The notes below the pieces were generated by a model. It searched no databases and was not told where the DNA came from. It worked only from the letters and a program-made list of their open reading frames with translations. DNA of 64,000 bases. Source: Octopus vulgaris (Eukaryota). The position numbers and the translations under genes were made by a program. Position 1 is the stretch's first letter. Each line of letters starts with the position of its first letter. Shown piece after piece: positions 12,608 to 47,514 of this stretch. Where the stretch lies: assembly GCA_951406725.2 (NCBI GenBank), contig OX597825.1, forward strand, positions 67,022,001 to 67,086,000. Direction: 5' to 3'.

Positions 12608-13787
12608 AATCAAGGAATGGCCATAATAGGCCATTCACCCACTAGAAATAACAGCCAAAGCTTCAACCGCAAAATAACATCAATTCCGCAAACCAGGAGA
12701 AAATTAAAAAAACATTTACCCTGTAATTTCTTATACGATGCACCGTTTCATCTATTGTTTAATGGCAAATAAATTCTACGAAATTTTTTTGCCACCCTAT
12801 ATTGATTAATTATATATATATATATATATATATTAAACTGAGATGTTAATTGGTGAGACCAAATGAATTTTCTTGAAAACTTTCTTGGTAAATATGTGCT
12901 TTGCCAAAAGAAAAGAGAAATACTAAACATTAACAGCTTGACAAAACAGCTGAAACACCTGTGTCTGTTTAGTTTTTGAGCATACAAATATCAGCGTTAG
13001 GTTTAACATATCAGTTATGAAAGACCCATTGATAAAGTGAAGGAAAAAAACTGAAATTGTCAAGAATGTAAAGGAAACCGTGATAATTAGGATAGTTATT
13101 CCGCAACAGGCATATCATTCACAACAACATTGCAGAATCTATTTTGACACCGCCGTCAAGTTTCTGAATTTCATATTACAAGAAATGTAGCAAGCTTGTT
13201 GTTAAAACTCGGAAACTGCTGGGAATTTCAACATCATTTGAGATGGAAATGAATTATATTTCTCACTCATGGTGAGTGGGGGTTACCTTAAATTGTGATC
13301 GATTTCATATGAGACTCGGTCAGTAACACTTAAGATATATCGCCAACAGAGGAGAAAAAAATCTATCAACAATTCTCTCGCTGAAGTCCCTGAGCTTCAA
13401 AATAAAATTATTTGAAGGATAGCAAATGAACCCGAGGGGAGACAAAAAAAAAAACAAAACAAAAAAAGCAGCGTGAGTAAATTCCTAGGAAGAGATCATT
13501 GTAAAACACTATATAACACTATAACGATATAACAGATATACCAATTGATTGAGAAGGCTGTATGGCGATATTTGATTCTTAAAACATAAATATTGAAGAT
13601 AATCAACCACTGAAAATTTCCCTACATAGAATGCCGTAATCCCAAGAAAGGACGGTGTACAGTAAATACAAAAAATATCAAGTGACAAACAATTGAACGT
13701 TATTTAAAATTACAGGACACAACCACGGGATTTAAAACTGGGAGAATGTCCTTCCTTTAGATACCACATTTTCAAGTCCTTCAATAT

Positions 13788-14010
13788 CTATTTCTTTACT
13801 ACCCACAAGGGGCTAAACACAGAGGGGACAAACAAGGACAGACAACCGGATTAAGTTGATTATATCGACCCCAGTGCGTAACTGGTACTTATTTAATCGA
13901 CCCCGAAAGGATGAAAGGCAAAGTCGACCTCGGCGGAATTTGAACTCAGAACGTAACGGCAGATGAAATACGGCTACGCATTTCGCCCGGCGTGCTAACG
14001 TTTCTGCCAG
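13788..14010 (-). mobile_element. SINE group A
   Basis: Near full-length copy with A-box TGGCAGAAACGTTAG and B-box GAGTTCAAATTCC on the minus strand. Confidence 0.9.
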
Positions 14011-16000: not shown

Positions 16001-17564
16001 CATGTATACATTTAGAAAATCGCATATTCAAAAAGAAGAAAAAAGGCAAACAAAGAAGGCTTATCTCTTTGACAGTGGCCAAGTTGAATTCTGAGTACTG
16101 CTTTATCTAAAAAAAAACCCTATTTATACGTACATATATTCATACACGCATGCGTTTGAGGACTGCAACATCATCTAGATTTGCAATCGGATAACGGGCA
16201 TATAACTGAAGCACTGTTGCTGACATCGCTTGTGATCTTCATTATGTCTCGGATGAGAAACACATGTCCCACATTCATATAGCAACGCTGAAATACTCAT
16301 GTTTTATAAACCTTCAAGTTTGTCCCAATTGAAATTCCAAACTGAAACCACAAAATTCCACCCAATTGTTAGAATGTGCCACTGGTTTTATTGATTCAGA
16401 GAGAGAGTTTTATCATCATGAGTATCTGTCAACTTCAAAGAATTGAATATACATAAAATCAACTCATATTTATCCACCGCCAACAATTTCTATCCATACG
16501 CATAAATCTTTGGTTCAGAGTAAGCTTTACCTGATGCAGACAGTGTCATACATGCATACATACATACACACATACATACATAGTTATGTATGGAAGTCAA
16601 ACTCATTGCTTACGAAAAATGGTTGTGCTTGGATGTATCCCGCAGACTTGGGGATGAATTTAATATCGATGTGATAGATAGACTTTCATGAATTTATGAC
16701 AGGAACAACAGCTTATATTTCGAAGGATTTTGCTTATGCAATGCAAAAGCCAAAGATATCGACTAAACGTCCAATGAACAAAAGTGACAGAGCAGAAAAC
16801 ATACAAAGCAAACCCGACTGAAAATGTCGATTACGTCACATTTTTGTTAGGATCGCGCCTTTGATCAGCAACTGTCCAAAGATGTCATTAACACAAAACT
16901 TTTCAAAGCTGAGCGATATTCAATGTCATCCGAGAAAAAGACTACTCTGGGATAAACATGTTTAAGAATATCTTTTATTATAGATACAGATACGTTTCAA
17001 TACATTCGCATCAAAACTCTGACAAGTACAAGCATAACAGTCTTTATATAATTGCTTGGGACAGAGAACAGAAATTATGGCTTGATAAATTTCTTTGGGA
17101 ATGACGCAAAAAAGAAGTATGTCAGCTGCTTTGAAAAGGTGAGCATATATTTACAGAGAGCAGGAAAAAATAAAATACAAAACATAGAAACCGTATTATG
17201 TTCATATACATATGTGTGTGTGTACACAAACAAATTATAACTTATTTGCATACTTGGCTAAAGAAATAAAGGTCAAGTTGACAATAGCGCTAAAATCACG
17301 GATTAAAAGATTAAAATTAAAGTTAGTGACCATCAACCACACAGTGTTTTAAAGATACACTGTAAAAGCAGGACAGAAGAGATTATGCAAGAAATTATTG
17401 AAGAGCAAGATGTAAGTCTTCAACAGTTGTTATTATGTATATTACGTTCCTTCTTAGAAACCAGATTCTACGTTAGAGAAGGAATACAAATACCTAAAAT
17501 CAAACTGAACATATACATGCATGCATACATACACATATATATACACACACGCACACACACACAC

Positions 17565-17765
17565 AGGGGACAAACAAGGACAGACAAACGGATTAAGTCG
17601 ATGACATAGACCCCAGTGCGTAACTGATACTTAATTTATCGACCCCCGAAAGGATGAAAGGCAAAGTCGACCTCGGCGGAATTTGAACTCAGAACGAAAC
17701 AGCAGACGAAATACGGCTACGCATTTCGCCCGGCGTGCTAACGTTTCTGCCAGCTCGCCGCCTTA
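17565..17765 (-). mobile_element. SINE group A
   Basis: Head AAGGCGGCGAGCTGGCAGAA intact, 3' end truncated. Confidence 0.9.
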
Positions 17766-20400: not shown

Positions 20401-20419
20401 AGAGCTAGCATAGACGACA

Positions 20420-21070
20420 CAAGAACCACAGGACGGGACATTCGAAGCCCTCAGTCATCAGTCAAGAACCAGATCATCTTAGCAATTTCGGCTGATTAAT
20501 CTTGAGATTGCTCCGATATGGCCAGCCCGCCACGGGAAATCTAAGCCAAGTGCATTAGATCCCCTGGAAGAAAGCTTCGAATGTATACAACACGAGGACG
20601 GAAAACGAAAGAAGTACACGAACAAAAATACAGAATACGTGACAACAATAAGAATATAAAAACGTAAAAACAATAACGGTAAAAATAAAGTATAAAAAAT
20701 AAATAACAAAACAAAACCAGGACGTAGGACAAGGGTCTTTCGACAGGACGAATTGAGCATGGGGCTAGCTTATGAAGTTGTGCCTAATGGCCACAGGGAG
20801 ACGAACAAGTACGTGTTGCTTCAACGGCTGCTGGAACGAAAAGAGCGTTCAACAGCGGCTAGCGGTCACGTGAGAACAAAAGACAAGAGAAAGGGACAGA
20901 TGAAAAGAGAGAGAAGGTGGACGAGGGAGGAGAAGAAAGAGACAGATCGAGGGGGCTGGAGGTGAGAGAGATAGAGAAACGTAGAAGGGGGGGGGGGAAA
21001 CGGATGGAGAGGGAAAGAAAGGAGGGGGAATAAGGGAGGAGAGAGAGAGAGAAAGAAAGATTAAGAGTCG
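20420..21070 (-). mobile_element. Non-coding repeat carrying permuted hammerhead copy 1
   Basis: Same layout as the 33867 unit on the minus strand: CT-rich stretch, TCACGTGA, T-rich region, permuted HHR, then GTCCTGT. Confidence 0.45.
20446..20512 (-). ncRNA. Candidate non-circularly permuted hammerhead ribozyme, copy 1
   Basis: Minus strand reads AGCAAU-C-UCAAGA uuaauc AGCC-GAAA-UUGCU aagaugaucuggu UCUUGA-CUGAUGA-cugag-GGCU. Stem III is AGCAAU/AUUGCU, stem I is UCAAGA/UCUUGA, and stem II is GGCU/AGCC (or CUGA/UCAG). The cleavage triplet is AUC. Confidence 0.7.
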
Positions 21071-21074
21071 TATC

Positions 21075-21255
21075 GAGCTTCTACAGGACTAGAACTGTTT
21101 CATTCAAAAGAAATCATCAGGAAGCTTTCTGATGATTTCTTTTGAATGAAACAGTTCTAGTCCTGTAGAAGCTCCTTCTATAAAATAAATTAATTTACTC
21201 TGCTATGTATTGAGTACCTTATTTACTGTGGTTAACCCCGACTCAACCCGGGACC

Positions 21256-21258
<3 letters not shown>
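21075..21258 (+). mobile_element. Short PLE-type terminal repeat with 100-bp fold-back palindrome
   Basis: Near-perfect palindrome 21075-21174 centred on AAGCTT, with a unique tail to 21258 and then (TA)n. The same family occurs inverted at 43704-43900. Confidence 0.75.
21123..21173 (+). ncRNA. Type I hammerhead ribozyme (mirror copy on minus strand at 21076-21126)
   Basis: AGCUUU-CUGAUGA-UUUC uuuu GAAU-GAAA-CAG uucuaguc CUG-UA-GAAGCU: complete core, three stems, GUA triplet. Confidence 0.8.
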
Positions 21259-21302
<44 letters not shown>

Positions 21303-21444
21303 AAAACACCTTTTATCAATTCAAAATGATATATATATATATATATATTGTGAAATTTGATTTAGTATTTCTAAATTGAAATTTTCCCTGTAAGTTAGGA
21401 ATAATATTCCCTCAAATTATTATTATTACTATTATAATTATTAT

Positions 21445-21985
21445 TGAGTGAGAGAGCAGTGCATGCCATCAAAGTGACACTGGGGTAAAATATACGAAGC
21501 CCAATATACCCATCATGACTATCCGTCTGATAAGGGTACACCAGGCACATGCATCACAACCATATGTGCGCGACATGGTGATCTCATATCAAGATAAACA
21601 GCACATGACCTTGCAGGTGGGGCCCAGTTAGAATTTTCTTCAGGTTGAGTAGCCCATCCCGCTCAAAAGGTCCCTGAATAAGGGTTGTTTAAGGATGTTG
21701 AAAGAACCACCCATGTTTCCAGAGGTGAAATATTCAAACCTGAAAGAATTTCTCTCAACACACGGCCTAGATGCTCCCCCACTACTTCTGCTCGTGATCA
21801 GAGATGCACATATCGTCAGCCACTAAGGGACATGCTCAACTGGTTAAGGTCAAACAACTGACAAGCAAATCCGTGGTATTGAGCAGAATATTTGCTGTAG
21901 CCCATCTTTTATACCAAGACAAAACAACGTACATGATAACACTTCCAATCAGTTAAGATCAGAAGCCATGAGAGCCACTGCCTGT
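21445..21985. mobile_element. Interspersed repeat inserted into a (TTA)n microsatellite
   Basis: GC-richer 540-bp non-coding block with (ATT)n on both sides, consistent with a TAA-targeting element. Family not determined. Confidence 0.5.
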
Positions 21986-21989
21986 ATTA

Positions 21990-22036
<47 letters not shown>

Positions 22037-22042
22037 TATATG

Positions 22043-22101
<59 letters not shown>

Positions 22102-22271
22102 ATAAGCAAAACATTCAAACACTAAGATTTGAAATAAGATGTCACTACTATTAATATCATCAGTGGATAAAATTTAAAATTGATGGTATCAACAGCAGTG
22201 ACATAGGTGCAAGACAAAACCAGTTGCACTGTCTGGGTTTAACGTGACGGTCGTGAATTGTTACTAGGTGG

Positions 22272-22329
22272 TTCATACGGAAAAGGCTCAAGGATTAAAG
22301 ATCCAGAAGCCGAAACCCGGGTATGTGGA
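22272..22329 (+). ncRNA. Degenerate type I hammerhead
   Basis: UUCAUA-CGGAAAA-GGCU...AGCC-GAAA-CCCGGGU-A-UGUGGA. The stems are intact, stem III is the palindrome ACCCGGGU, and the core has two substitutions. Confidence 0.55.
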
Positions 22330-22501
22330 TTAGCTAAACTGCATAATATTTTATTTTGTGCTTTTGAATGTATTAATTCTCTCCATTTTCCTCGCATACT
22401 GGTTTTCTCTGTTATCTCGGTGCTGTATGGTGGATTAATTTAAGATTTAGCTCTTATTTCTAGCAGATGTATGCTCTTTAAGCATCATTACGCTTTGTCT
22501 A

Positions 22502-22565
<64 letters not shown>

Positions 22566-22985
22566 TAGTGTATAAGAGTTTATACATAGAGTGGAGACTA
22601 CCATGTGGAGTCCTTATAAGCTAGACAGGGCAGTCACAACCCAAATCACGAAACATGTTCTTACATTGCACGTTACTTGTAATCAATTAATTTGTGAATC
22701 GATTGATTAACCATCCGTGGCGATCCGTAAGGTCGCTGGGAAATGCATAATTACGAAGCTATAATGGTTAATTAATGAATTGATTGACTAATTATGTGAT
22801 CATTTACGGCGAAACTTATGGGTATAGGGTTAACTAAGATTTTTATTCAGTCAAGTATCCGACATGCAACGGTCACTGTAAGAATATCTCTTTCGTGGTT
22901 TGCGTTTTAACTGCTCACTCTAGCAAGTAAGGAATCCACATGGTGGTCTCCTCTCATTGTATAACCTTTTACCTTTTATACACTA
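22566..22985. mobile_element. Old fold-back/MITE-like element with ~115-bp imperfect inverted termini
   Basis: TAGTGTATAA...GAGACTACCATGTGGA.TCCTTA..GCTAGA..GGGCAGT versus ACTGCTC..TCTAGC..TAAGGAATCCACATGGTGGTCTC...TTATACACTA. Confidence 0.65.
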
Positions 22986-24404
22986 TTATATTATAGGAAT
23001 ATTTATGTCTTCCGACTCTTATTACGTATGCTAACCACGGGCATTAATTATTAATTTAATAATATCTACTCTGTATTGATATAGTCATATATATATATAT
23101 ATATATATACATGATTCTCCTGAAGAAAAACGGTTATTTTATGTCATGCAGGTGTTTTATTCATCAAGAAAAAACATGTCGTGAACGTGTACCCATTATT
23201 ATTTGTTCTTCAACACACTCGTAACCTTCCCTGAGTTGGATCTTGAGCCTACAATGGACCCTGGAATACGTGCTGGTGTATACTCCTCTGCGATTCTTAC
23301 GTATACCTTGTGTATTTGGTCTATACTTGTGAATGTTGAATGTACGTGAAACGGGAAGGACGAATTCGTATCTACTTTAGTAATTACTTGAGTGTCCCTA
23401 TGGACTGTAAGTGCACAGGCACGCTATACCCGACACTACCTTGGTGCCTTTGATATTTAAATATCTTGATTCCATTAGATACTGAAAATTTTATTATATA
23501 TATACATATCTATCTATCTATTTTCCACATAACTTATGCCAATTATTATAGTGTCTCTTCATTCCCCAAACCGTATCGATACCATTCTTTCGATGTTCTG
23601 CTTTGTTAAAACCAGAAATGGCACTTAGGAATGAAGCATTAACGTTTGAGATCATTTAATTTTTCCCAAGAGATCAATAGACCGATTGAGTAAACCTATC
23701 AATAGTGAACCTATAATGACTACCGGAAACAGCCATAAGTCAAATTTACTGCAATGTACTTCTTTAGTCCATAACTTTATTTAATGCATCAATGTGAGAG
23801 CCAAACTGTTGCTTTACCCTTTTAAATGGATGTAATATATTTCTATACTTCTCTATATGTGTGCTTGTGTTTGAGAAGAGGTGAGATTACTGTGTGTCGG
23901 TGTAGGTAATTTGAACACACAATGCAAGATATGGTAGATTCACAATTAGAAATATCATGTTGAAAAACATCACCATAAATAATAACCTGAACAGTGCATT
24001 GTAAATCATGTTTATATATTGATATTGTTCCGGAAACGGAAACAAGCGATCTATGAAACTATGAAGTCTATTCACGATGTCACATTGCTTAACATGACAT
24101 TCGCCTGGTTTTGCAAATGATTCGTTTTACAACTCCATTTTAAGTGGGGAGAAAAAACGGACAAGAAATATTATAAATAATAGAAAATCTATCAATATCT
24201 CTCTCTATATTCAAATCACCGATGTTCAATGACAACAAAATATGTGTCTGGGTGGTGGCTAGATTTAAAATTTCGCAACACAACGTTTACCCGGTTTCAA
24301 GTTCAATTCCATTGAAAAACACTTGCGGTAAATGTGATCCGCTATGGTATTCGGGTTTCAGTAATACTTTGTGAGTGACACATTGATGGTGGTTGCTATA
24401 ACGA

Positions 24405-24448
<44 letters not shown>

Positions 24449-24528
24449 CGTCGGTGAAACGTTAATCTGAAAACAAGCACACTGTAAGTTATAGAGCAGT
24501 ATATAATATAGAGTTAATGCCGGTTTAT

Positions 24529-24712
24529 GGAATTACCATGGGTTTGACGTCCATAAAACGCTAGGCTTTAAGGTGTGTCATCAGATCCCAAAACATATTG
24601 GATTGAGAATTCCTCAGATCCCCAAACCAGTTTCCTTAAGGCAGAAAGTTTTGGGATCTGATAATACGCCATAATGCCAAACACTTTGTGGAGTGAAACT
24701 TAGGGTAATGCC
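24529..24712. ncRNA. Two decayed, oppositely oriented hammerhead-like motifs (24529-24589 minus; 24653-24712 plus)
   Basis: GGGAU-CUGAUGA...CAAAC-CCAUGG-UA-AUUCC and GGGAU-CUGAUAA...GAAAC-UUAGGG-UA-AUGCC. Each has one core substitution. Confidence 0.45.
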
Positions 24713-24729
24713 ACAAAACGATTTTATCT

Positions 24730-24772
<43 letters not shown>

Positions 24773-24831
24773 TGTGTATGTATGTATATATATATATATA
24801 TGTATAAGGGTGGAAAGGAACACACGAGTTG

Positions 24832-25201
24832 ATATATATGAAAAAACAAGTCAAAAATAGAAAATGCTAAGATAATTTTATAGTGAATCTTTCAGTACCG
24901 GTTTCGGTCATTTTGGGACCTTTTCAACTGTAACGATTAAATAATTAAATTTAGAAAAATTAGAAGATAAGTTTTTTTAAAAGTTTTGCAAGTGCAAACA
25001 AGGGAGTCAGAGAAAGGCAGAATGCTACTTATATCTGAACACTACTACAGAAATATTCTTTTAAAAAAACTTTTCTTCTAATTTTTCTAAATTTAATTAT
25101 TTAATCGTTACAGTTGAAAAGGTCTCAAAATGACCGAAACCGGTACTGAAAGATTCACTATAAAATTATCTTAGCATTTTCTATTTTTGACTTGTTTTTT
25201 C

Positions 25202-25209
<8 letters not shown>
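24832..25209. mobile_element. Inverted pair of ~150-bp PLE-type terminal repeats with a ~73-bp spacer
   Basis: 24832-24983 is the reverse complement of 25057-25209 with about 2 mismatches. Each arm carries a minimal HHR. Confidence 0.75.
25111..25148 (+). ncRNA. Minimal type I hammerhead with U3-A8 core variant (mirror copy at 24893-24930, minus)
   Basis: CAG-UUGAAAA-GGUC ucaaaau GACC-GAAA-CCGGU-A-CUG. Stem III is the palindrome ACCGGU, typical of PLE minimal HHRs. Confidence 0.72.
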
Positions 25210-25241
<32 letters not shown>

Positions 25242-25527
25242 TCATACTGGCGGATATAACCACCCTTTCTCGCGATCAAAATGGTAGTTTTTTATTGTTT
25301 TACTTGTTTCGGTTATGTGACTGCGGACATGCTGGAGCACCGCCTTTAGTTGAAGGAAGAGACAGGAGGATTATTTCTTTGTATGCCAACGACTCATTCT
25401 ATCGGTATATTATTGTAAACAGCTAAGTTAAGGCGACCTAAACACGGCAACATCGGTTGTCAAGCGATGGTGGGGGCACAAACACATACTTACTGACAGA
25501 CACACACACATACACATATATCTATAC

Positions 25528-25574
<47 letters not shown>

Positions 25575-25706
25575 GTTATATATATACATATACACACATA
25601 TATATGCATACATATATATATACATATAAATATATATATACACATATATAAATATATATATACACACATGTATATATATACACATGTATATACATATGTA
25701 TATATA

Positions 25707-26085
25707 CAATTGCGTCAGAAATTAATTAGCACTTCTCAAATTTCTACATTAAATAGGTTAAATCAATTAACCTATGAGCTGTTCAAAACGTCTTACGCGA
25801 TGAGAAAACTTAGTATGGTGTGATTTCGGTCCTTGCGAGGCGCTACCTATATCTATTAAACAAAGGAAGTTTGTCTGCATCCGCACTCCAAGTTGTTGTT
25901 GCACTGCTATGTCAACATCATAAGGCTGTAGACTCTCAAACTGCTCTGCAAACAAAGTTACGTCATCGTTCTGCGCAACAGTGAACTCGCAACAAAGCAA
26001 TAGTTCGAGATATGGCCACTAGGTGACAGCACATACCTTGAGTGAAGAGCAGATCAAGGGTGCTAATTAATTTCTGACGGTAGTG
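25707..26085. mobile_element. Tc1/mariner-type MITE
   Basis: TIR CAATTGCGTCAGAAATTAATTAGCAC / GTGCTAATTAATTTCTGACGGTAGTG with TA on both sides; no ORF. Confidence 0.8.
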
Positions 26086-26192
26086 TATATATATATATAT
26101 ATACATGTATATGTATACATGTATATATATCCATGTGTATAAGTATATGCATGTATATACTTATACACATGAATATATACGTGTATATATAC

Positions 26193-26237
<45 letters not shown>

Positions 26238-26247
<10 letters not shown>

Positions 26248-26708
26248 TGGTAAAGTAAAAAAATTCACTTTACCGCACACCGAACTTTTCAGAAATAGCA
26301 GCCAAAAATTTGGCTATTTCTTCAACTGCAAGTAAAAGTCTCCAGACAATGCATACTCAGAAAATAACTCACATAGGTATAAGGGAAAAACAATAAAAGA
26401 TCACATCCATATAAGATCTTATATGGATGTGATCTTATATGGATGTGATTTTTTAATTGTTTTTCCCTTATACCTATGTGAGTTATTTTCTGAGTATGCA
26501 TTGTCTGGAGACTTTTACTTGCAGTTGAAGAAATAGCCAAATTTTTGGCTGCTATTTCTGAAAAGTTCGGTGTGCGGTAAAGTGAATTTTTTTACTTTAC
26601 CATATTTTTATAAATTAATACTTCAAATATACCGTAAATGGTCCTTTTACATACCGAATACTGCTTGGTCGAATTGATTAACAATTAATTCATTCTACCC
26701 TTTTTACT

Positions 26709-26711
<3 letters not shown>
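26238..26711 (+). repeat. ~375-bp near-perfect palindrome plus 100-bp tail, between (TA)n tracts
   Basis: Arms 26238-26416 and 26417-26612, with the axis in AGATCT and a 16-bp duplication on the right arm. The unique tail runs to 26711. Confidence 0.85.
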
Positions 26712-26779
<68 letters not shown>

Positions 26780-27502
26780 TGTGTGTGTGTGTGTGTGCGT
26801 GTCTGTGAGTCTGTGTTTGTACCCCCACCATCGCTTGACATCTGTACAACAGTAAACATTATTATACTCATTACTTTAAAACACAAAATTTTTGTAACTA
26901 CCTCAACTTAAATGTCAACCTACTTTAATAAACCAATACATATATATTTAATTCAATCAAAAATAATTTTAATAAAATTATCCTCTCAACTAAAGTGAGA
27001 CACATTACAATTATGTTAATTTTTGTTTATATATATTATTCAAATTTTTTTCCAGAAACAATTTCCATTACTTCTACTATGTTACGACTTATCTCATTTA
27101 AGCAACCAGAGTTACGCCCTATATATGTATTGTACGTATATATATATACTTATATATAAAAAGATATATATGCATACAAATATACATGTTTATATATATG
27201 CATATATACACATGTATACATATATATAGATATACATGTATATTTATATATATATATATATATATACATATATAAATATGTATATATATATATACAAAAT
27301 ATATACAATATATATGTATATGTACGAATATATATGTATTTCTCTATACATATATATATATATATATATTTATGTATATATATATGTATATATACATAAG
27401 TATATATACATACATATATGTATATATACATAAATATCTAGATATATATGCATATATTCATAAAAGTATAAAAACCGCTTTATTTGTGAGATGACTCAAT
27501 GT

Positions 27503-27559
<57 letters not shown>

Positions 27560-27566
<7 letters not shown>

Positions 27567-28490
27567 CTAAATAAGCAATTTACTTTCTTTCTACAATTAG
27601 AACCGAAATTTCCATCTCTACGCAAGTCTTCAACAATTGAACTATTATTATTAAGCAAATAGCTATCCTCGTCATTATTACTAAAACTTATATTTCAGTC
27701 AAAACCATAACTAACATTCTGGCTAATGGGAAAATCAATAACATTAGCATCTAAAGAATCGATCTCGTTAACACTAACTGAGTTATCACGACGTTAAGAA
27801 CCAGATAATTTCTTCTCATTAATAGAATAATCTAGGATAAATTCCGAGAAACCGAAAAAGTAACCCCTTTAGGGATCTCGGACACAAAATCTCATAGTGT
27901 CTACCATTTTTAACCAAAATGTTTCAAAAACAATTTATAAATAGCCCCAACTAATTTACTTTATAGTTGACCGGCAAAGGGAATAATATACCATATAATC
28001 TCATTCTTGTCCAAAAGTAATTAGAATGACCTAAATTATTAACCTTATAAACCTAGTTAGAATTATTATCAAGATGATAAAAACCAGATAATGAAATGTC
28101 ATTTGAATCAACGCTGAAGTGGATATATATATTTTCTGTTTTTGATAAGTTTGGCATTCTGTTAATATATTTCTATCATAATTTAATTGTTTGCCCATTT
28201 CTGGGCTATTGCAAAGGTCTTTATATTTTAGTTGGTAGAACCCATTCATTCCAATAATGAATTCCTGAAGAAAAGCATAATGTGTTTCATTTTGTTTTGA
28301 ATTAATTAGACTTGGAAACAACTTGTAGAGCTTTTATTGGGTATATACCAGCTTGGGATAAAGTAACGTCTACTCTTCTATTTTTTCCTTTTTCTAAGAT
28401 ACTTTATTTATTTATTGTACCAATATTGAATCGGCAGGCTTGGATATTTAACATCCCTTTGAATGATTTAGGTCTTTACTTCTTCTTATG
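27560..28490 (-). mobile_element. Decayed Penelope-like 3' fragment
   Basis: Remnant endonuclease-like text (TECQTYQKQKIYISTS), a decayed HHR-like motif at 27594-27639 (CAAUUG-UUGAAGA...GAAAUUUCGGUU-C-UAAUUG) and (TA)n flanks. Confidence 0.5.
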
Positions 28491-28509
28491 ATATATATAT
28501 GTATGTATG

Positions 28510-28567
<58 letters not shown>

Positions 28568-28739
28568 TGTATGTATGTATGTATGTATATATGCATGTAT
28601 GTATGTTCTATCTTTTTACTACTATTACTACCACTAGTAGTAACAAACACATTTGACCTCTGTTGATCCCATGGATATGAGGCCTTTTGTCTCCTTATCG
28701 CACAGAAATGGCCATTGCTGATCTTGCCATCATCTGCCG

Positions 28740-29062
28740 GGCGTGTGGCTTAGTGGTTAGGGCATTCGGCTCATGATCGTAAGGTTGTGAGTTCGATTCC
28801 CGGCGACGCGTTGTGTCCTTGAGCAAGACACTTTATTTCACGTTGCTCCAGTCCACTCAGCTGGCAAAAATGAGTTGTACTTGTATTTCAAAGGGTCAGC
28901 CTTGTCACTCTCTGTGTCACGCTGATTATCCCCGAGAACTACGTTCAGGGTACACGTGTCTGTGGAATGCTCAGCCATTTGCACGTTAATTTCACGAGCA
29001 AGCTGTTCCGTTGATCGTATCAGCTGGGACCCTCGTCGTCGTAACCGGCGGAGTCTTTTTAA
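28740..29062 (+). mobile_element. tRNA-derived SINE group C with 11-bp TSD
   Basis: A-box TGGCTTAGTGG, B-box GAGTTCGATTCC; TSD ATCATCTGCCG at 28729-28739 and 29063-29073. Confidence 0.9.
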
Positions 29063-29208
29063 ATCATCTGCCGAATCTATTTACAGACCTTGGAATTTAA
29101 TCTGTTCACAAGCTGGTTTTACCCTGTTCCTACTATTCTCTGAAACCATCACGTATTTATGATTATCTCAAGTACAAGACAAAAATATTATTAAAAAACA
29201 TTTAATAA

Positions 29209-29618
29209 TAGGCGCAGGAGTGGCTGTCTGGTAAGTAGCTTATTTACCAACCACACGGTTCCGGGTTCAGTCCCACTGCGTGGCACCTTGGGCAAGTGTC
29301 TTCTACTATAGCCTCGGGCCGACCAAAGCCTTGTGAGTGGATTTGGTAGACGGAAACTGAAAGAAGCCCGTCGTATATATGTATATGTATATATGCGTGT
29401 GTGTGTTTGTGTGTCTGTGTTTGTCCGCCAAGCATTGCTTGACAACCGATGCTGGTGTGTATATGTCCCCGTTACTTAGCGGTTCGGCAAAAGAGACCGA
29501 TAGAATAAGTACTGGGCTTACAAAAGAATAAGACCTGGGGTCGAGTTGCTCGATTAAAGGCGGTGCTGCAGCATGACCACAGTCATATGACTGAAACAAG
29601 TAAAAGAGTAAAAGAGTA
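29209..29618 (+). mobile_element. tRNA-derived SINE group B with internal microsatellite and (AAAGAGT)n tail
   Basis: Head AGGCGCAGGAGTGGCTG..TGGTAAG, B-box GGGTTCAGTCCC, internal (TA)/(TG) tract, tail GTAAAAGAGTAAAAGAGT. Other copies: ~10505-10962 (+), ~25290-25500 (-), ~51275-51445 and 51857-52020 (-). Confidence 0.88.
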
Positions 29619-30446
29619 AATACCTTTTAAATTATAAATGAAAATAGTAATAACGTTGGTAATAATAGTGATAATAATAATAATGAAAATAATAATAATT
29701 TAGCCAAAACTCATGTCAGATCAGAGGAAATATTAACAATGACAAATAGTAAAATAATGAAAATAATAATATCACTGATAATAATAAAAATGAGAGGAAG
29801 CGGTTGGAATTTCCTTATGCTCTGATTGTTTATACATCTTGTGATAGCGTCACAATAAAAACACAGGCAATTGCGCAACCTGATAATCGCTACCTCATAT
29901 AAGTGACAATGAAAAACAAAATATTGTGAAGAACGGTGGTAATAAAACTTAAACCATTGATCGTTAGAGTGTTGCACCCGGCAGGCTCAGAAATACTGTT
30001 TTGACTCCAGCCTGTCGTTGTCCAGCAAGGAACCAGCACATAGACCTTGAAGCTATCAAAAGACGGTTAATGGAAAACAGCAGCAGAAGAAATGATGAAA
30101 ATACAGTCCCTACTGATTAACGTGATCTCATAGCAAAAATCAGAGGTGTAATCTCTAATAAACCACAGGAAAGGAACAGTGGTAGGTTGCTGGATGAGAG
30201 ATATATAGATTGTTTTGAAATAGATAATAAAACTAATGGTGACATGACAGATGGGCTAAAGGCGATCTATGACAGAATAAAGGCAAGGCTATCTGGTACT
30301 TATTCTATCGACCCAGAAAGAACGAAAGGTAATTTCAACCTCAGAGGAATTCGAACTGAGACTTAGCGACAAATAAAATGCATTTTCTCTTAACGAATCT
30401 ACCAGCTGGCTGCAGCAACAACAACCACAATAATAATAATAATAAT

Positions 30447-30666
30447 GTGGCCATGCTGGAGCACCGCCTTTTAGTCGAGCAAATCGACCCCAGGACTTAT
30501 TCTTTGTAAGCCTAGTACTTATTTTATCGGTCTCTTTTACCGAACCGCTAAGTACTAGGCTTACAAAGAATAAGTCCTGGGGTCGATTTGCTCGACTAAA
30601 AGGCGGTGCTCTAGCATGGCCACAGTCAAATGACTGAACAAGTAAAAGAGTAAAGAGGAAAGAGTA
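30447..30666 (+). mobile_element. SINE group B 3' portion with 5' inverted duplication
   Basis: 30447-30520 is the reverse complement of 30551-30623, followed by the normal tail. Confidence 0.85.
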
Positions 30667-31399
30667 TTTGATTTTGTGGGATAGTAATAGTGATTATATC
30701 GTTGCAGTTTCCGATCGATACTTATTTTATCGATTTACACGACGAACGTCAAAGCTGAGAAGAATTCGAAATCAGAACTTAAAGAAGTTTAACGATATAC
30801 CGTATTATATTTTAAGTGTTGACCTGTTCATTCTGCATATCATTGGCACAGATAATTGAATATTTTCTGTGTTGATCTTCCGTCTTTGGAGCTCATATTA
30901 TAACAGTAGTCAAGAAACTTATCTCTCAGTGTGCACAAAGTTATAAATGTTAATACGAAGATAATCATTATGCATGACTATAATAAAATGTATTTGACAT
31001 ACGTGTGTTTTTATATAACATATCTTTTCACGGTGTCAGCTCCGCGTTGATGTTAGCATATACGCGCAAGTTGAAGAAAATGGGTTTACCGTCAATGTAT
31101 ATAATACCTGTTGGGATACAGATATCGGCATCGAAGATATGGATTATCAGCAAAGATATTTACTTCACCTGATGCCAGAATTAGATTGTTGATCTGTATT
31201 CTCTGTCAAAAGTCGAGTGTCGATTACTTACATTCTGTGTAAAAGCCCTGGGCATGATAAAAATACTTAAAGACGTAAAGTTAGAAAATGCGAGATATGA
31301 GCATCTTATGAGAGAAAATTATTAATTTATTTTTCTCTCTCATTCTATTTACACACACACACACACACACACACATATATGTATATATGTATGTAAGTA

Positions 31400-31451
<52 letters not shown>

Positions 31452-31615
31452 GTGTTTGTGTGTGTAAACATATGTGTATATATGTGTGTGTGCCTGTGTG
31501 TGTATGTCTGTGCATGTGTACTTATATGTATGTATGTTTGTTTGCATGTATGTATGTATGTATGTATGCATATTTTTCCCAACTTCACAGTACTCAAATT
31601 TGGTGATATGTAGTA

Positions 31616-31656
<41 letters not shown>

Positions 31657-31790
31657 TTCTCTCTCTCTCTACACACACACATATATATTTATATATGTTT
31701 ATATGTGTGTATATATATTTGTGTGTTGTGTATATATGTATATATATGTATATATATATGTACATGTATATATATGTATATGTATGTATA

Positions 31791-31831
<41 letters not shown>

Positions 31832-32169
31832 ACGTACATATACATATACTTCATTTGGGGTGGCCAAAGCTACAAATAGATTCCTGTAAAGAGACATCTT
31901 TCAACAGTTTGTAAGCGTGCCATATATGCCATATTGGGACTTTGTTATGTGACTCCATTTCGGATGAGAATACACGAAGCTACACTAGACTGCACATGAT
32001 TTTGAGATAAATAAATAAACAAAAAGAAATTATTTCTCCTATCCGCTGTTGAGCACTCATTCTCAATGTTCGATATTGTTGAAAAAATACTTCCGTCGTT
32101 CTTAAATAACGGATGAACGCTAAAAAAGGAACATAGAATAAAAAAAAATACATGGAAAAATATAAAGTA

Positions 32170-32420
32170 CAAGCATCACTGAAGAATATATTCTACCTCC
32201 AATGAAATCATCTCATCAATAAAACAGATGGCCTAAAGAAAAGTCCTATATTTTCGATAAATACATGACCAGCCCTCGTTCCAAAGACCATTATCGATTT
32301 AGTTCTTTCAAAAACACACCACATATTAAAGACCTAGATAGATTTCAAGATAGCTACATAAAACTTGTTAAGAATGTGAACTTCAACGATAGATCTAAGA
32401 GATTCGAAGCAAACTAGGGA
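32170..32420 (+). mobile_element. Penelope-like N-terminal ORF fragment
   Basis: Translates with breaks as SLKNI...KDHYRFSSFKNTPHIKDLDRFQDSYIKLVKNVNF, resembling the PLE N-terminal pattern. Confidence 0.5.
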
Positions 32421-32708
32421 TATTCCCTAATTCTTTGACGATTGAACTTATAAATTATTGATATATTTATTTTGGATATTTCTTAATTATTCCTCTTTGC
32501 AGATAGAATAGTTGTCTTATACAGAAAGCTTTGTTCAATGACGTATGCACTATATGCACAGATATTCTTGAAACAGATATAAGAAATTATAAGTATTATT
32601 TCTTAATCTCTTCTTTACTCTAATAGCTCAGAAATTACGTTTGAATTATAAATTATGTACTCTAAAGTGATATTACATGTTTATATTTCATATATGCATA
32701 CATACGTA

Positions 32709-32754
<46 letters not shown>

Positions 32755-32803
32755 TACATACACATATATACATACACACACACATATATATATATATATA
32801 AAT

Positions 32804-33140
32804 GTGAAGGCGCATGCCTCAGTGGTTAGAGTGTCGAGCTTACAACTATGAGGTTGTGAGTTCGAATCCCAGACCGGACTGTCTGTTGTGTTCTTGAGAA
32901 AGACACTTTATTTCACGTTGTTCCAGTTCACTCAGCTGTAGAAATGAGTTGCGAAGTCACAGGTGCCAAGCTGTATCGGCCTTTGCCTTTCCCTTAGATA
33001 ACACTGGTGGTATGGAGAGGGGAGGTCGGTATGCATGGGCGACTGCTGGTTTTCCATAAACAACCTTGCCTGGACTTGTGCCTGGGAGGATAACTTTCTA
33101 GGTGCAATCCTATGGTCATTCATGACCGAAGGCGGTCCCT
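32804..33140 (+). mobile_element. SINE group C
   Basis: Head GGCGCATGCCTCAGTGGTTAG...GAGTTCGAATCCC. Confidence 0.88.
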
Positions 33141-33804
33141 ACATATATATAAATGTAATTTAGTTTCAGTTTTATTAGGTATTTAAATTGAGGCACGTTA
33201 TTAGGAGGAACTAATTCGCCCATTCAGAAAATATTAGGTGAGTATCAAACTTTATGCAGAATCCCAATCACCAGTAATATTCTTCCAGGGTATGCAGATA
33301 GCACAATCTAACTTAGTGAATAAATCCTGTCCTGTTTGTTCAGACATGTACTTTATATAAAGATATTTTCCATATTTCCCAAGTCAAAAATCCAAGGTAA
33401 AATATAAATGAGTAACATTCATTACGGCCGTTTAAAACGATTCCTTTAATTTATCAGTAAAAGCATTGCAACATTATAAAGAAACCGTTCTCATCAGATG
33501 ACTGCATAGACTTCAATTTTAAAGGACAAGTTATATATTCAAACATACTCATATCTTCAATAGGGAGCAAATATTTTACACTGATTCCGCTGCTAATTTT
33601 TTGGCAGATTCTGTGTGTGTGTGTGTGTGTATGTGTGTACAGTTGTGTATCTTTGTGTCAGTTTTTTCCCCTACACCAGCTCACTGTGTTTAAGTCTCTG
33701 TGAATTTTCACCTCATCAAATTACCAGGCTTCAGAAATTTAATTCTCACGTAAATACATTAGACTAAAAATTCAACGCAGTGCCCCAGATAAAAGTCAAA
33801 AACA

Positions 33805-33866
<62 letters not shown>

Positions 33867-33873
<7 letters not shown>

Positions 33874-34786
33874 AATAAATAAATAAAACATATGCATATA
33901 TACATATATGTACGTACCTACCTCTACATGTATATATACATGCATATATGGGTACAGGACACCCAAAAAAACGTCGAACACAATGAGAAACGAAAACATA
34001 AACACAAAAACAACGAAAAAATAGCGTACAGGACATACAAAACAAGGAAAATTCCCCTTCTTCAGTCGCCTTAGATTCATCTACTCCACGTTTCGAAGGT
34101 CAAGGCGATACATGACTTCAATGAAAATTTCCTTCCCGCGAAAATCAATTTAAATAAAATTTGAGATTTTTTTGCGGAGGGGTTAAAATGGTAACAAAAA
34201 CAGGACAGCAATGACAATACAAAATATAAACAGTAAAGGACAGGACGCAGAGAATAACAGTAACACAAACAAGAAGGGCTGTTAAGCCAAACGAGATAAA
34301 CATTTTTTTTTTACGAAGGCTATTTTTTGAGACAGCAAGGAGCAACAAATTTACCGTCTCTACTTGGAGGAAGCCAGGAGAAGAAAGACAGAGATAACCA
34401 TCTCATCACGTGACTGCGAGGGGAGGGAGGAGGTGGAGTAAGAGAAAGGGAGAGAAAAAAAGGGGAATGGTTGTAGAGAAAAGAGTGAAGAATGAGAGAG
34501 AGAGAGAGGGAGAGGCAGTAAGATAGAAGAAAAGGAAAGCCAAAAGAATGAAGGCTGAGAAAGGGAGGGGGAGAGAGAAAGGTTAAGAGTGAGCATCATT
34601 ATTAATATTAAGAACAACCTTACTTAGAAATGGATGCGTGAGTTCCGTCATATAATAAATAAATAAATAAAACATATGCATATATACATACATATATGTA
34701 CGTACCTACCTCTGCATGTATATATATATGCATATATGGGTATAGGATACCAAAAAAAACGTCGAACACAATGAGAAAGGAAAACA
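33867..34786 (-). mobile_element. Non-coding ~784-bp unit plus part of a second tandem unit, carrying the permuted hammerhead (putative non-autonomous PLE / retrozyme-like element)
   Basis: 33867-33998 is repeated at 34651-34786. The unit has a CT-rich stretch, no real ORF, and ends at (TA)n. Confidence 0.55.
34052..34115 (-). ncRNA. Candidate non-circularly permuted hammerhead ribozyme, copy 2 (different sequence family)
   Basis: Minus strand reads UCAUGU-A-UCGCCUU ga CCUUC-GAAA-CGUGGA guagaugaaucu AAGGCGA-CUGAAGA-AGGGGAA. Stem III is CAUGU/ACGUG, stem I is UCGCCUU/AAGGCGA, and stem II is weak (GGGG/CUUC or GAA/UUC). The cleavage triplet is GUA. Confidence 0.68.
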
Positions 34787-34836
34787 CAGTCGCATCTCGG
34801 TTTTCGAACAACTCTGATCACGAATAAATCTTGCTT

Positions 34837-34891
<55 letters not shown>

Positions 34892-34938
34892 CACGATGTA
34901 TTCGACATCAGAGTTGTTCGAAAACCGAGATGCTACTG
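34787..34938. mobile_element. Small pogo/Tc1-type MITE whose spacer is a (TA)n tract
   Basis: CAGTCGCATCTCGGTTTTCGAACAACTCTGAT... / ...ATCAGAGTTGTTCGAAAACCGAGATGCTACTG, imperfect arms of ~50 bp. Confidence 0.7.
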
Positions 34939-35076
34939 TATATATATATATATATAAGTATGTATATATGTAAGTATGTATGTATGTATGTATGTATGTA
35001 TGTATGTATGTATGTATGTATGTATGTATGTATGTATGTACGTATGTATGTATATTCATATATCTACATATGCGTA

Positions 35077-38978: not shown

Positions 38979-39489
38979 CATATATTCATACACACATGAA
39001 AGTAAAAGAGAGACGCGCACACATTATCACATCATATGCATGCACCAATATGGATGTGCGCATATGAAGTTGAATGTAGGTGTGTGCATATCTAGACACG
39101 TATAAGAATATATAGTGAATATACTGATGAAAAGTAATGAAAATTTCTACAAAGTACTTGAAGATGTATTCCTTTTTGATCTGTAATTAACCGACATTGA
39201 CTGAAATTTATGTGTTCTTGTTGTTTCGCCAGTATCAAAATCGTTTACGCATCTTGTACACTTGTACACTTCTGTTTGGTGGAAATGTATAGTTCATATT
39301 TCTTAAGCAAATTTCGACACCAGCAAGTCTATAAATAACACCATAACTATCCACTTTGTAGTGTTATATATTCGCCAGTTGTGATAGTAACTGCTGCGTG
39401 TGCGCGCGCTTGTGTGCATGTGTTTGTTGATAGATATAGCCATAGACATTTAAATATATTCATACATTTGTAGAAATATATATATATGT

Positions 39490-40920
39490 AAGGTACAAAA
39501 AGTTAAGAATAGTTTAGTTAAATTTTTCCGTAGAATGGGCTTAAGCATCGTTTTTGATGATGATATGACGAAGGCCAACTTTTTAGACATTACACTTAAC
39601 TTACACAATAACTCTTACTTCCCATACCACAAACCATCAACCAATCTTAAGTATATTAGCAAACTCAATAATCATTCTATGACAATTACTAGGAACTTAG
39701 TTAAAAATATTTCATTTAGATTTCTAGGTTATCTGCTAATGTTGACATTTTCAATGATAAGGCCGAATTTTATAACTCTGAGAGAAAGTTACCTACATTA
39801 ATTCCATTCAATCTTATTCTATCTTTACCAATGTAGATATGAAATCTAGTTGTAAGGATATAAACGATATCAATTTTAATTTATACTCCAAAATCAAGCA
39901 GAGCTAGAGAGATAACCCTTATTTAATCCCCTATTTTCATTCTAAAGGTAAATCTATGTCTTTTGAAAATAATTACACTAAAAATAAGATAACTAATAGT
40001 AAAACCATTTGGCTAATTATTCCATACGGGAGGTAAATTAAATCTAATCTTCCTTTGCAGTTTCGTGAAGCTATTATTAGGAATTTTCCAAAAATTCTAG
40101 GTATTACTCTATTATCAGCTCACACACGGTTAGGATAGGTTTTTTCCGTCACAAAAAATCTCATGCAAATTATCTCTTCACATAATATTAACCTGTTAAA
40201 TTTTAATACATTTACTAATACTAACATTAATTTAGCTAGTACCATCCATCCCCCTAGGAATATTAATAACAAGGTTATTGTATCTGAAGTCAATTACAAC
40301 AAAATCAAGTTTATGTCAAGTAACTCTAAAATTAAAAATTCCATATACCAGTGTTAAATTACTACTGGTAATGAAGTATATTTTTATACAGGAAGCACAT
40401 CTCAGTTATCAATGGAATGTCTAACCATTACTCTACATTTAGGGATAGAAGGAAACGTAACAGTACAGGGCTTAGTAAATTAATTTGGAATCTAAAAGAC
40501 AACAATAAACAATTTAATTTAGATTGGTTGATTCTCTCAATCTTGATACCTTATGACAAAGGGTAGGAATTCTGTCTTCTTTGTAAATCTGAACTATTCT
40601 TTATTCTTTTTTTTTTAATCCCCTTGTAAACACGGTTATAGAGCGTGCATACCGATGTAAACATTGGCGGAAACGCACGCTTAGTTAATACAACTGATAT
40701 CTTAGAAACTTGTCGGAAGTAAAAGAATTTGAATAATACACCTGCGTTTAACTCCATTTATTTATTTATATATATTTTACAAACTATTTCACGTAAACCC
40801 GACGTTTTTATCTTTAAATCAAGGAGTTACAACCGTTTTACTTGTGTGAATCTTTGCTACCCTGGTAACTATTCATATACTTTTTCCATGTGAATTGTTA
40901 ACAAGGGAAAAATTCACGCA
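39490..40920 (+). mobile_element. Penelope-like retroelement 3' fragment (RT thumb plus GIY-YIG), decayed
   Basis: ANFLDITLNLHNNSYFPYHKP..NLKYI...NNH is the RT thumb. NSIYQC*ITTGNEVYFYTGSTS...NHYSTFRDRRKRNSTGLSKLIWNLKD...FCLLCKSE is the endonuclease. Stops and frameshifts are present, and the element is flanked by (TA)n. Confidence 0.85.
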
Positions 40921-43706: not shown

Positions 43707-43892
43707 GGTCCCGGGTTGGTTCGGGGTTAACCACAGTAAATAAGGTACTCAATACATAGCAGAGTAAAATTAATTTATTATATAGAAGGAGCTTCTACAG
43801 GACTAGAACTGTTTCATTCAAGAGAAATCTTAAGGAAGCTTCCTGAAGATTTCTCTTGAATGAAACAGTTCTAGTCCTGTAGAAGCTCCTTC

Positions 43893-43900
<8 letters not shown>
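43704..43900 (-). mobile_element. Short PLE-type terminal repeat with 124-bp fold-back palindrome
   Basis: Palindrome 43777-43900 with its axis at 43838/43839; (TA)n on both sides. Confidence 0.75.
43837..43887 (+). ncRNA. Type I hammerhead ribozyme, same family as 21123
   Basis: AGCUUC-CUGAAGA-UUUC ucuu GAAU-GAAA-CAG uucuaguc CUG-UA-GAAGCU. The minus-strand mirror copy has a core mutation (CUUAAGA). Confidence 0.8.
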
Positions 43901-43941
<41 letters not shown>

Positions 43942-43944
<3 letters not shown>

Positions 43945-44174
43945 ATAAAACGGTAAGATAACAAAAGAAAGAAAGAGACCTCAATATTATGTAAATAGAG
44001 GAAATTTATCTATACAATATGTTACATTACTCGTTAGTCAAGATAAAACTCTGAGTTTCAGATGCCGAAGTGGAAATCCACAACACCATCTCTTCGGTTA
44101 TCTTCGGATTTCCACTTCGGCATCTGAAACTCAGAGTTTTATCTTGACTACCGAGTAATGTAACATATTGTATA
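43942..44174 (-). mobile_element. Short PLE-type terminal repeat with partial inverted duplication
   Basis: Arms 44011-44079 and 44106-44174 are inverted, an HHR is on the minus strand, and the element is embedded in (TA)n. Confidence 0.65.
44040..44104 (-). ncRNA. Type I hammerhead variant (U4 to C) with extended stem II
   Basis: AAGAUAA-CCGAAGA-GAUG...CAUC-U-GAAA-CUCAGAGU-U-UUAUCUU: 7-bp stem I, near-palindromic stem III, GUU triplet. Confidence 0.65.
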
Positions 44175-44487
44175 TATATATATATATATACCATAGTCTA
44201 TAATATTTCGACTGATTATGGCTAAGAACCCAGTGATATATAAGTTACGATACTAAATAACGAATATGAAATTTGTAAGAATTTTAAAGCCAGCTTGTAC
44301 CCTATTCCGGCACAATACTGAATCATCTTCAAATCTTTCGCATATTTATAAAACAAAATATGAATGAGTGAATGGCAATTTTATCAGAAAAAGGAAACAA
44401 ATAAGAGACGCATGAATAAATTGGAAGACTTGAAAATGATTGGTAATATCTTTTCCTCACTAAGAAGTTCATATGATGGATACACAA

Positions 44488-46851: not shown

Positions 46852-47514
46852 CTGAAAATAAAAAGAAACAAGAAACGTGTTACATATTTAACATTTTTTA
46901 AAAATAGTAATACAAGATTCATTCGAAAATATTATGAAATCACATTCTACTACAATTAAGATAAAACATATCGAGTCTTTTATACAACCCAATTCACTTC
47001 CTTTCCATGTGTTGCTACAAAACTACTTTTCTTTTCACTAATTCTACTATTTCTATACAATTTTTAGTGAAACTGCAAATCAGATGTTACAGTACTTGTT
47101 CCATTTCTCCTCGTCATAAATTCCTCCTCTATTCCGTTTTCTATGCTTTTAGAATCTCATCTCATCATATGGCTTTCCTATTTTTACTTCTTTCATAGGT
47201 AACATTTTAAATAAAATACTTATGTGTTGGCTTCGACTAGTTATCAATAACACTAAATGTTCTGAACTGCTCTCAGCGTATTTCCTATATTCTTGGATCA
47301 AATTGATAGAAGTATCATAACCGCTATTTTCGTTACAATTCATCCCAGGATATTGCTGCTAAACACACCGCCATTATTTTCAATTCCTTAAAATGCTTCC
47401 AAACCTCGATTTGGAAAGCAGCGGTTAATTATAAATAACCATGATCCTTGTTACATGAAATATTTGTAGATAACGAAAACAATTTGAAATATTTACTGAG
47501 TAAAGCAACAACTG

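Follow-up and report, generated by a model that had tools for sequence, protein, structure and literature searches.

Predicted hammerhead ribozymes with a split core in two non-coding Penelope-like elements of Octopus vulgaris

Hammerhead Motifs in the Window

A stretch of 64 kb from Octopus vulgaris (assembly GCA_951406725.2, contig OX597825.1, positions 67,022,001 to 67,086,000; referred to here in its whole length as the window), set in a 2.8-Gb genome, harbors two repeat copies, each of which carries a hammerhead-like motif on the minus strand. Element A denotes the copy with position H17 of the motif at 20506 and element B the copy with H17 at 34109. Both motifs are predicted, with a high degree of probability, to be active hammerhead ribozymes in which the core block is split between A9 and G10.1.

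A preliminary description of the window had placed three hammerhead strands at 20446-20512 and 34052-34115 (both minus), in an order outside types I to III, and both statements were confirmed. The hammerhead core, consisting of C3-A9 (CUGANGA), G12-A15.1 (GAAA) and U16.1-H17, is complete in A and B, with GAAA at 20489-20486 and 34094-34091 and CUGANGA at 20461-20455 and 34065-34059, respectively. The NUH triplet (AUC in A, GUA in B) lies where it had been predicted, and the sequence agrees with the predicted cut positions (Table 1). Stem I comprises 6 bp in A and 7-8 bp in B, stem III 6 bp in each. According to the block coordinates, the cleavage block is followed by GAAA and then by CUGANGA in both elements; as this order is no circular permutation of CUGANGA-GAAA-cleavage, and as types I to III are without a pseudoknot, A and B belong to none of these types. 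The motifs reach further 5' than first described, namely to 20527 (A) and 34135 (B).

A descriptor comprising both core words and U-H, with minimum lengths of 4 bp for stem I and 3 bp for stem III and with stem II not required, matched exactly two sites in the 64 kb, which are those of A and B; in 100 dinucleotide shuffles of the window, matches averaged 0.02 with a maximum of 1. As anticipated for motifs that models of types I to III would miss, no hammerhead family from Rfam was found over A or B at E<=10, and the Rfam results for the whole window held simple-repeat noise only among the 150 of 218 matches listed.

Table 1. Coordinates of elements A and B and of further features in the window.
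Feature	Position	Strand	Remarks
Element A: 5'-truncated, 3'-clipped copy of 780-bp non-coding tandem unit	20409..21074	-	98-99% identity to L006 unit
A, stem II 10.x strand	20522..20527	-	G10.1 at 20527; partner 20495-20490; 6 bp; 21 nt 5' of H17; A1 covariation, fixed-offset peak
A, helix IV 5' strand	20515..20521	-	Partner 20475-20469, 6/7 pairs in window copy; covariation
A, cleavage block: stem III 16.x strand, AUC, stem I 1.x strand	20500..20512	-	Predicted cut 20506/20505
A, stem II 11.x strand, G12-A13-A14-A15.1, stem III 15.x strand	20481..20495	-	A1 covariation
A, helix IV 3' strand, stem I 2.x strand, CUGAUGA core C3-A9	20455..20475	-	No stem II strand after A9
Element B: 804-bp non-coding tandem unit with (TA)n at its end, present in about 1.15 units	33870..34786	-	87-90% identity to L046 unit
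B, stem II 10.x strand	34131..34135	-	G10.1 at 34135; partner 34099-34095; 5 Watson-Crick pairs; 26 nt 5' of H17
B, helix IV 5' strand	34120..34128	-	Partner about 34081-34073; 6-bp run in window copy
B, stem III 16.x, GUA, stem I 1.x, stem II 11.x, GAAA, stem III 15.x	34086..34115	-	Predicted cut 34109/34108
B, helix IV 3' strand, stem I 2.x strand, CUGAAGA core	34059..34081	-	
Palindrome with canonical-order (type I) hammerhead words	21075-21174		Stem I 6 bp, U-U at 10.1/11.1; directly adjoins 5' end of element A
Palindrome with canonical-order (type I) hammerhead words	43773-43904		Stem I 6 bp, U-U at 10.1/11.1
Long inverted repeat	34786-34939		Adjoins element B 5' end; (TA)n at centre
Further long inverted repeats	24832-25209, 26235-26615, 44004-44181		
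Penelope-like open reading frame fragment	8348-9058	-	GIY-YIG domain (E 2.6e-6)
Penelope-like open reading frame fragment	39454-39798	+	Resembles reverse transcriptase thumb by eye; no useful Pfam match
Other repeat family, about 190-230 bp, dispersed and tandem, many window copies	863-1623, 13784-14010, 17559-17765, 55780-56900		
Rhodopsin-family G-protein-coupled receptor open frame	46128-46931	-	7tm_1, E 8e-24

Copies, Units and Ends of the Elements

The suggestion that the motifs reside on non-autonomous retroelements held as well, and these are present in high copy. The genome contains 1566 candidates for A and 1538 for B; the 40 A copies scored were all 100% identical over 101 nt, the 40 B copies 97-100% identical over 96 nt. 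Both elements are non-coding and often arranged as partial tandems, sometimes with an inverted 5' copy, the unit of A measuring 780 bp (tandem spacing 772-784 bp) and that of B 804 bp, with a hammerhead present in each tandem unit. The 3' ends are fixed at +152 (A) and about +270 (B) from the predicted cut and run into (TA)n, and the 5' ends vary. Fixed 3' ends, variable 5' ends, (TA)n targets and partial tandems have been described as a Penelope-like signature (PMC8557442), and together with the inverted 5' copies these features assign A and B to Penelope-like derivatives. Being non-coding, they lack the reading frame of Naiads with its N-terminal GIY-YIG and C-terminal reverse transcriptase (RT) domains, and they lack the type I hammerhead found in non-LTR (non-long-terminal-repeat) retrozymes. 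Similarity between A and B is confined to simple sequence. Moreover, a pattern excluding both window families gave 326 matches in the genome vs 13 in the reversed control, and a looser pattern gave 10,274 vs 1,179, covering many families with different stems.

In the contigs of four runs, none of them on record as RNA, no joints were seen. In one presumed RNA run, contig depth over L006:1516-1569 was about 100x that of the remaining unit, and in the large run the excess was a few-fold; this excess over the ribozyme probably stems from related families sharing words and is not interpretable.

Stem II and Helix IV

In the preliminary description, stem II was drawn with the strand following A9, across a bulge or an inserted base, which would make A and B ordinary hammerheads of type SGC (Eckert et al., 2023; PMC10085705); this placement had been flagged there as the weak point. 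In the window, four pairs can form after A9 in A, across a 2-nt bulge, and in B one inserted A is followed by G-C, G-U, G-U and G-C. Likewise, an additional base separating positions 9 and 10.1 is typical of Penelope hammerheads and described as conserved (PMC4209133), and the end of Naiad_Plae can, by eye, adopt a stem II with a 5' or a 3' strand. Alignments of genomic copies argue against this placement in the A clade. The first of two alignments, A1, comprises 20 of the 23 distinct A-clade types, without the off-family matches L039 and L208 (both unpaired at -21) and one decayed A copy; the second, A2, was built from the window copy and 21 of the 28 B-like matches, omitting one near-duplicate and six matches whose 5' flank is missing through truncation or rearrangement. 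Stem II and the additional helix IV were both absent from the descriptor that found the matches. In A1, the stem II of the preliminary description is 44.7% paired and without covariation above shuffles (reached by these in 167 of 500 cases), the bases after A9 being unpaired with the strand before G12 in A-like subfamilies. A stem II formed by a strand 5' of the cleavage block is instead 87.5% paired, with changes on both sides in five of six pairs and a score that 0 of 500 shuffles reach. In controls slid along the alignment, pairing ranged from 7 to 46%, a comparison which weighs more than the shuffle counts. G10.1-C11.1 is kept in 19 of the 20 rows, and the complete four-helix model is 87.5% paired, with double changes in 16 of 22 pairs and 0 of 500 shuffles as good. 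Covariation among collected genomic copies, named as a check in the preliminary description, supports the fold and fails that description's own stem II.

An offset scan covered 112 distinct matches selected on cores and stems I and III only, off-family and truncated ones being kept and one being dropped for its simple-repeat flank. The five bases before G12 formed 4.2 and 4.0 Watson-Crick pairs of 5 with the 5' strand in two groups (n = 26 and 37), both at -21, and 3.4 of 5 in a third group (n = 48) with its peak at -26, vs 1.8, 1.9 and 2.9 at the best register of the 3' strand. Calculated duplex energies were -10.0 and -7.3 kcal/mol for the 5' stem II vs -3.2 and -3.1 kcal/mol for the 3' alternative. 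Stems I to III around a core with G10.1-C11.1 are supported by covariation, with stem II via the 5' strand; stem II would be formed by a strand 21-26 nt 5' of the cut and, in the A clade, not by the strand after A9. For B alone, the placement is ambiguous, since the 5' option (99.1% paired in A2) features just one double change and the strand after A9 is 94.3% paired with the 11.x strand; in this 3' alternative, two of four pairs are G-U and shuffles match the covariation in 183 of 500 cases. The A2 model as a whole is 89.8% paired, with 0 of 500 shuffles as good.

Helix IV is composed of the bases directly 3' of the 10.x strand and of the linker between GAAA and CUGANGA just before stem I. 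It is 85% paired in A1 (double changes in five of seven pairs, 0 of 500 shuffles) and 89.3% paired in A2 (double changes in four of six pairs), and a third family features 4.3 of 5 pairs at one register (n = 33). Helix IV runs on from the 5' strand of stem II, just as the published 'I' helix extends stem II (PMC10085705), which further disfavors a strand after A9. Altogether, an ordinary type SGC hammerhead seems quite unlikely, and the split-core fold with its 5' stem II is preferred. The linker AGAUGA(A)UCU, pointed out earlier, is indeed present in both copies and is explained by being one strand of helix IV, although it is not invariant across families. Besides, two further pairings were considered. 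A stem II between the linker and the 11.x strand (78.8% paired, covariation equaled by shuffles in 428 of 500 cases) was replaced by helix IV, and a helix between the 5' and 3' flanks (75% paired in A1), which overlaps helix IV and stem II, may represent an inactive conformer. The pseudoknot is absent from single-strand minimum-energy folds.

A chance arrangement, boosted by the copy number of two repeats, would draw on the fact that copies inside one family are not independent. It is already contradicted by the covariation, and many unrelated families with differing stems keep the four helices and the 21-nt offset, also outside this genome, so that chance is extremely improbable.

5' Ends of Genomic Copies at the Predicted Cut

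The 5' ends of A copies were mapped by anchoring on the exact 3' terminus, which occurs at 359 sites (0 in the control), the first 100 of them being mapped. A 12-base interval (+1..+12) had been suggested by an earlier, biased list and was then tested on this separate sample. Among the copies at risk, 14 of 89 end at +1..+12, three of them exactly at +1, vs 0 of 75 at -21..0 and 0 of 92 at +41..+60. The end rate at +1..+12 amounts to 0.013 per base (binomial 4.7e-7), compared with about 0.001-0.003 at other positions. At the adjacent ribozyme upstream, the interval +1..+12 holds the ends of 2 of 21 copies and the positions immediately before it those of 0 of 19, and 19 of the 100 copies extend past this second site. 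For B, mapping covered the first 80 of 341 anchors, 42 of which continued beyond the retrieved sequence. Copies ending at +1..+12 numbered 11 of 63 and those ending at +13..+30 numbered 14 of 77, with five more at -26..0 (binomial 0.002), two of these five being microhomology over-extensions on inspection.

The simplest reading of the end clusters of A and B would be reverse transcription running off a cleaved 5' end, with a few bases lost at joining. Alternatively, the fold could be derived from a hammerhead without cleaving and serve as a signal for RT recognition or packaging, the 5' ends then marking stalling in the pseudoknot. Such a role would suit the 75 of 100 A copies that read through the cut site and the 5' ends of B, whose spread over +1..+30 could also be produced by stalling; moreover, for a Poseidon element, for which internal priming was shown, cleavage is reported to be dispensable for insertion in vitro and no RNA-seq reads to have ended at its cleavage site (PMC11167929). 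The ends of A, in turn, break off abruptly at +1: the 21 nt of structure on the 5' side contain no ends, and neither does the fold's 3' edge, at which stalled copies ought to end. Core words, NUH and G10.1-C11.1 are conserved over divergent families and phyla. Stalling in the pseudoknot fits B better than A, and a non-cleaving signal is regarded as unlikely. Returning to a cleaving ribozyme, most templates would have been uncleaved or circular, since three quarters of the A copies read through the site.

Occurrence in Naiads and Candidate Partners

Naiads have been reported without canonical hammerheads, some records being flagged HHR_core or HHR_half_core, the latter including octopus and squid Naiads (PMC8557442). 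In 53 Naiad consensus records, the terminal few hundred bases were read by eye together with core-word matches, and the remainder of the records may hold more. In these stretches, nine of 53 ends feature the full fold with a 5' stem II (Amil, Aacu, Anas, Movir-2, Chem-3, Plae, EuTe, Obim and Ovul), in Plae, Obim and Ovul at offset -21, two feature a partial fold (Bfor with a stem I of just 2 bp, Esco with an unsure stem II) and 42 are without it. Amil, Aacu, Anas, Plae and EuTe presumably stand for corals, an acanthocephalan and a crustacean. The notion of a cephalopod non-autonomous family holds insofar as A and B are non-autonomous; its restriction to such carriers does not, the fold being found by eye on the 3' ends of autonomous Naiad consensus sequences from several phyla as well.

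Further motifs were noted by eye at the Naiad ends. Nematode Naiads carry canonical-order hammerheads at the same place, Naiad_Ptep has a variant whose stem II is a local hairpin, and an unnamed motif shared by bivalve, hemichordate and two Clytia records represents a candidate for a further ribozyme. Words at the ends of Naiad-1_Movir, Naiad-4_Chem and Naiad_Mley are taken to be twister-like.

In the octopus genome, a family with 331 matches (0 in the control) fits the Octopus Naiad consensus ends. In two colinear copies of this family, an RT-like remnant is followed by the fold downstream; compared with the RT of an intact element, this remnant gave a pairwise E of 3e-5, and no Pfam match was found on three RT-like remnants. 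A sense fold downstream of GIY-YIG was seen at 0 of the 30 loci examined among 148 matches, and the flanks of L001-L120 held no GIY-YIG or RT match with the two Penelope-like fragments of the window as queries. The intact element (L225:1406-5087, G000:C16) encodes RT followed by GIY-YIG at the C-terminus in a 781-aa frame preceded by a 359-aa open frame and recurs in many loci; it is a candidate helper for A. At its 3' end lies a hammerhead-like core with U3/A8 replacing C3/G8.

Among the 101 distinct metagenome and viral matches listed, three (L553, L527 and L438) have a stem I of at least 5 bp and 98 do not. All three feature the 5' stem II, which the pattern had not requested, with 6, 6 and 4 contiguous pairs, respectively. 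Their surroundings are AT-rich and non-coding; L438 itself resembles coral Naiad ends.

The presence of the fold at the 3' end of some autonomous Naiads suggests where the units of A and B originated. The units show no sequence homology to the genome's Naiad family, so that a descent from Naiads would be backed by the shared fold and target alone. It appears reasonably probable that the split-core fold is an ancient ribozyme of Naiads across several animal phyla and of thousands of their non-coding dependants, that it is active in vivo, as the 5' ends would record, and that it accounts for part of the 'missing' Naiad hammerheads.

Proposed Mechanism and Implications

A and B may be regarded as copies of two non-coding Penelope-like (retrozyme-like) elements with one putative self-cleaving hammerhead per ~800-bp unit. 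In 5' to 3' direction, the RNA would present the stem II 10.x strand and helix IV, the cleavage block, the GAAA block, and finally helix IV, stem I and CUGANGA, so that it would be complete as soon as A9 is transcribed. Catalysis presumably follows the usual acid-base mechanism of G12 and G8, and tandem transcripts would be cut to unit-length RNA. An autonomous Penelope-like RT could then prime internally at a fixed position, about 150 nt (A) or about 270 nt (B) 3' of the cut, at (TA)n. On cleaved linear RNA, copying would halt near the cut 5' end, whereas on uncleaved or circularised RNA it would run through the site and give rise to partial tandems.

Several points weigh against an active split-core ribozyme of this kind. 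The rows of A1 and A2 were hand-picked and are related, so that their shuffle counts should not be read as probabilities, and the rows of A1 had been selected for stems I and III. The 5' stem II of B shows the single double change mentioned above next to a well-paired 3' alternative. A comparison of core and flank conservation, which the preliminary description had named as a check, showed the core of B copies to be only slightly better conserved than one flank, the core deviating by 2.3% and the flank by 3.6% (n = 47). The read-through of A copies, the spread of B ends, the dispensable cleavage of Poseidon, the 42 Naiad ends without the fold and the lack of homology to the genome's Naiad family are of the same kind. 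Additionally, a break between A9 and G10.1 is without precedent in the literature searched. It could weaken the metal site of the A9 phosphate and G10.1. The break may nonetheless be plausible, since Penelope hammerheads carry an extra base at that place (PMC4209133).

If the prediction is true, it adds a seventh strand arrangement of the hammerhead to the six thought possible, and its core would tolerate a backbone break at A9/G10.1. Non-circularly permuted ribozymes would thereby move from metatranscriptome RNAs without an identified source to animal chromosomes, where they would occur in high copy. Moreover, the view that Naiads thrive without hammerheads, which has served to argue that the ribozymes might be mere parasites of these elements, would have to be revised. 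The pile-up of 5' ends would represent a genomic readout of cleavage in Penelope-like retrotransposition.

Comparison With Known Ribozymes and Retrozymes

The preliminary description had called for a literature check on the topology, and the block order turned out to be already published as type SGC, although the connectivity with a 5' stem II differs from it (Eckert et al., 2023; PMC10085705). According to that account, type SGC (HRIMA-1 and a variant) was validated in vitro and stems from metatranscriptomes only, type CSG is restricted to metagenomes, and, with one GCS candidate as the sole exception, none came from genomes of known organisms. A and B share with type SGC the cyclic order cleavage-GAAA-CUGANGA with mutually crossing stems I, II and III, the short connection from stem I to stem II and a helix linking stems I and II at their far ends, helix IV corresponding to the published 'I' helix (PMC10085705). 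Unlike type SGC, they have the 10.x strand detached from A9 and placed 5' of the cleavage block, and they occur in thousands of copies in an animal genome. An uninterrupted block C, with the stem II strand right after CUGAnGA, was not found in the A clade or the Naiad family, clade B alone being ambiguous. The predicted fold is the type SGC secondary structure in circularly permuted form, in which the two SGC ends are connected to each other and a new opening lies between A9 and G10.1. It lies outside the six orders of Eckert et al. (2023), since these assume that CUGAnGA and the adjacent paired bases are inseparable (PMC10085705). Judging from the main text of that paper, the search employed there would miss the form with a 5' stem II; the SGC descriptor was not found in the supplement. 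By their sequence, A and B appear hammerhead-like on every testable feature, while they belong neither to types I to III nor, strictly, to type SGC.

The pseudoknot-containing hammerhead (Zhan et al., 2024; PMC11300833) resembles A and B in that a pseudoknot and a fourth helix replace the contact of loop I with loop II. Unlike A and B, it keeps A9 and G10.1 contiguous, with A9, G10.1 and C11.1 closing the loop, and retains the canonical block order as described there.

With regard to the host elements, A and B are similar to Naiads in their (TA)n targets, partial tandems, inverted 5' copies and fixed 3' end, and differ from them in encoding no protein (PMC8557442). In common with animal non-LTR retrozymes, for which a Penelope-like mobilisation has been proposed, they consist of non-coding tandem units with one hammerhead each (Cervera and de la Pena, 2020; PMC7229834; bioRxiv 10.64898/2026.07.22.740005). 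Unlike these retrozymes, which carry type I hammerheads and mostly form circles of 170-400 nt, A and B feature a permuted ribozyme in genomic units of ~800 bp. In the literature searched, outside which most subscription papers and bioRxiv supplements fell, neither a permuted hammerhead in animal retroelements nor a split between A9 and G10.1 was found. The block order of A and B is a known one, and their strand connectivity and host setting are apparently new.

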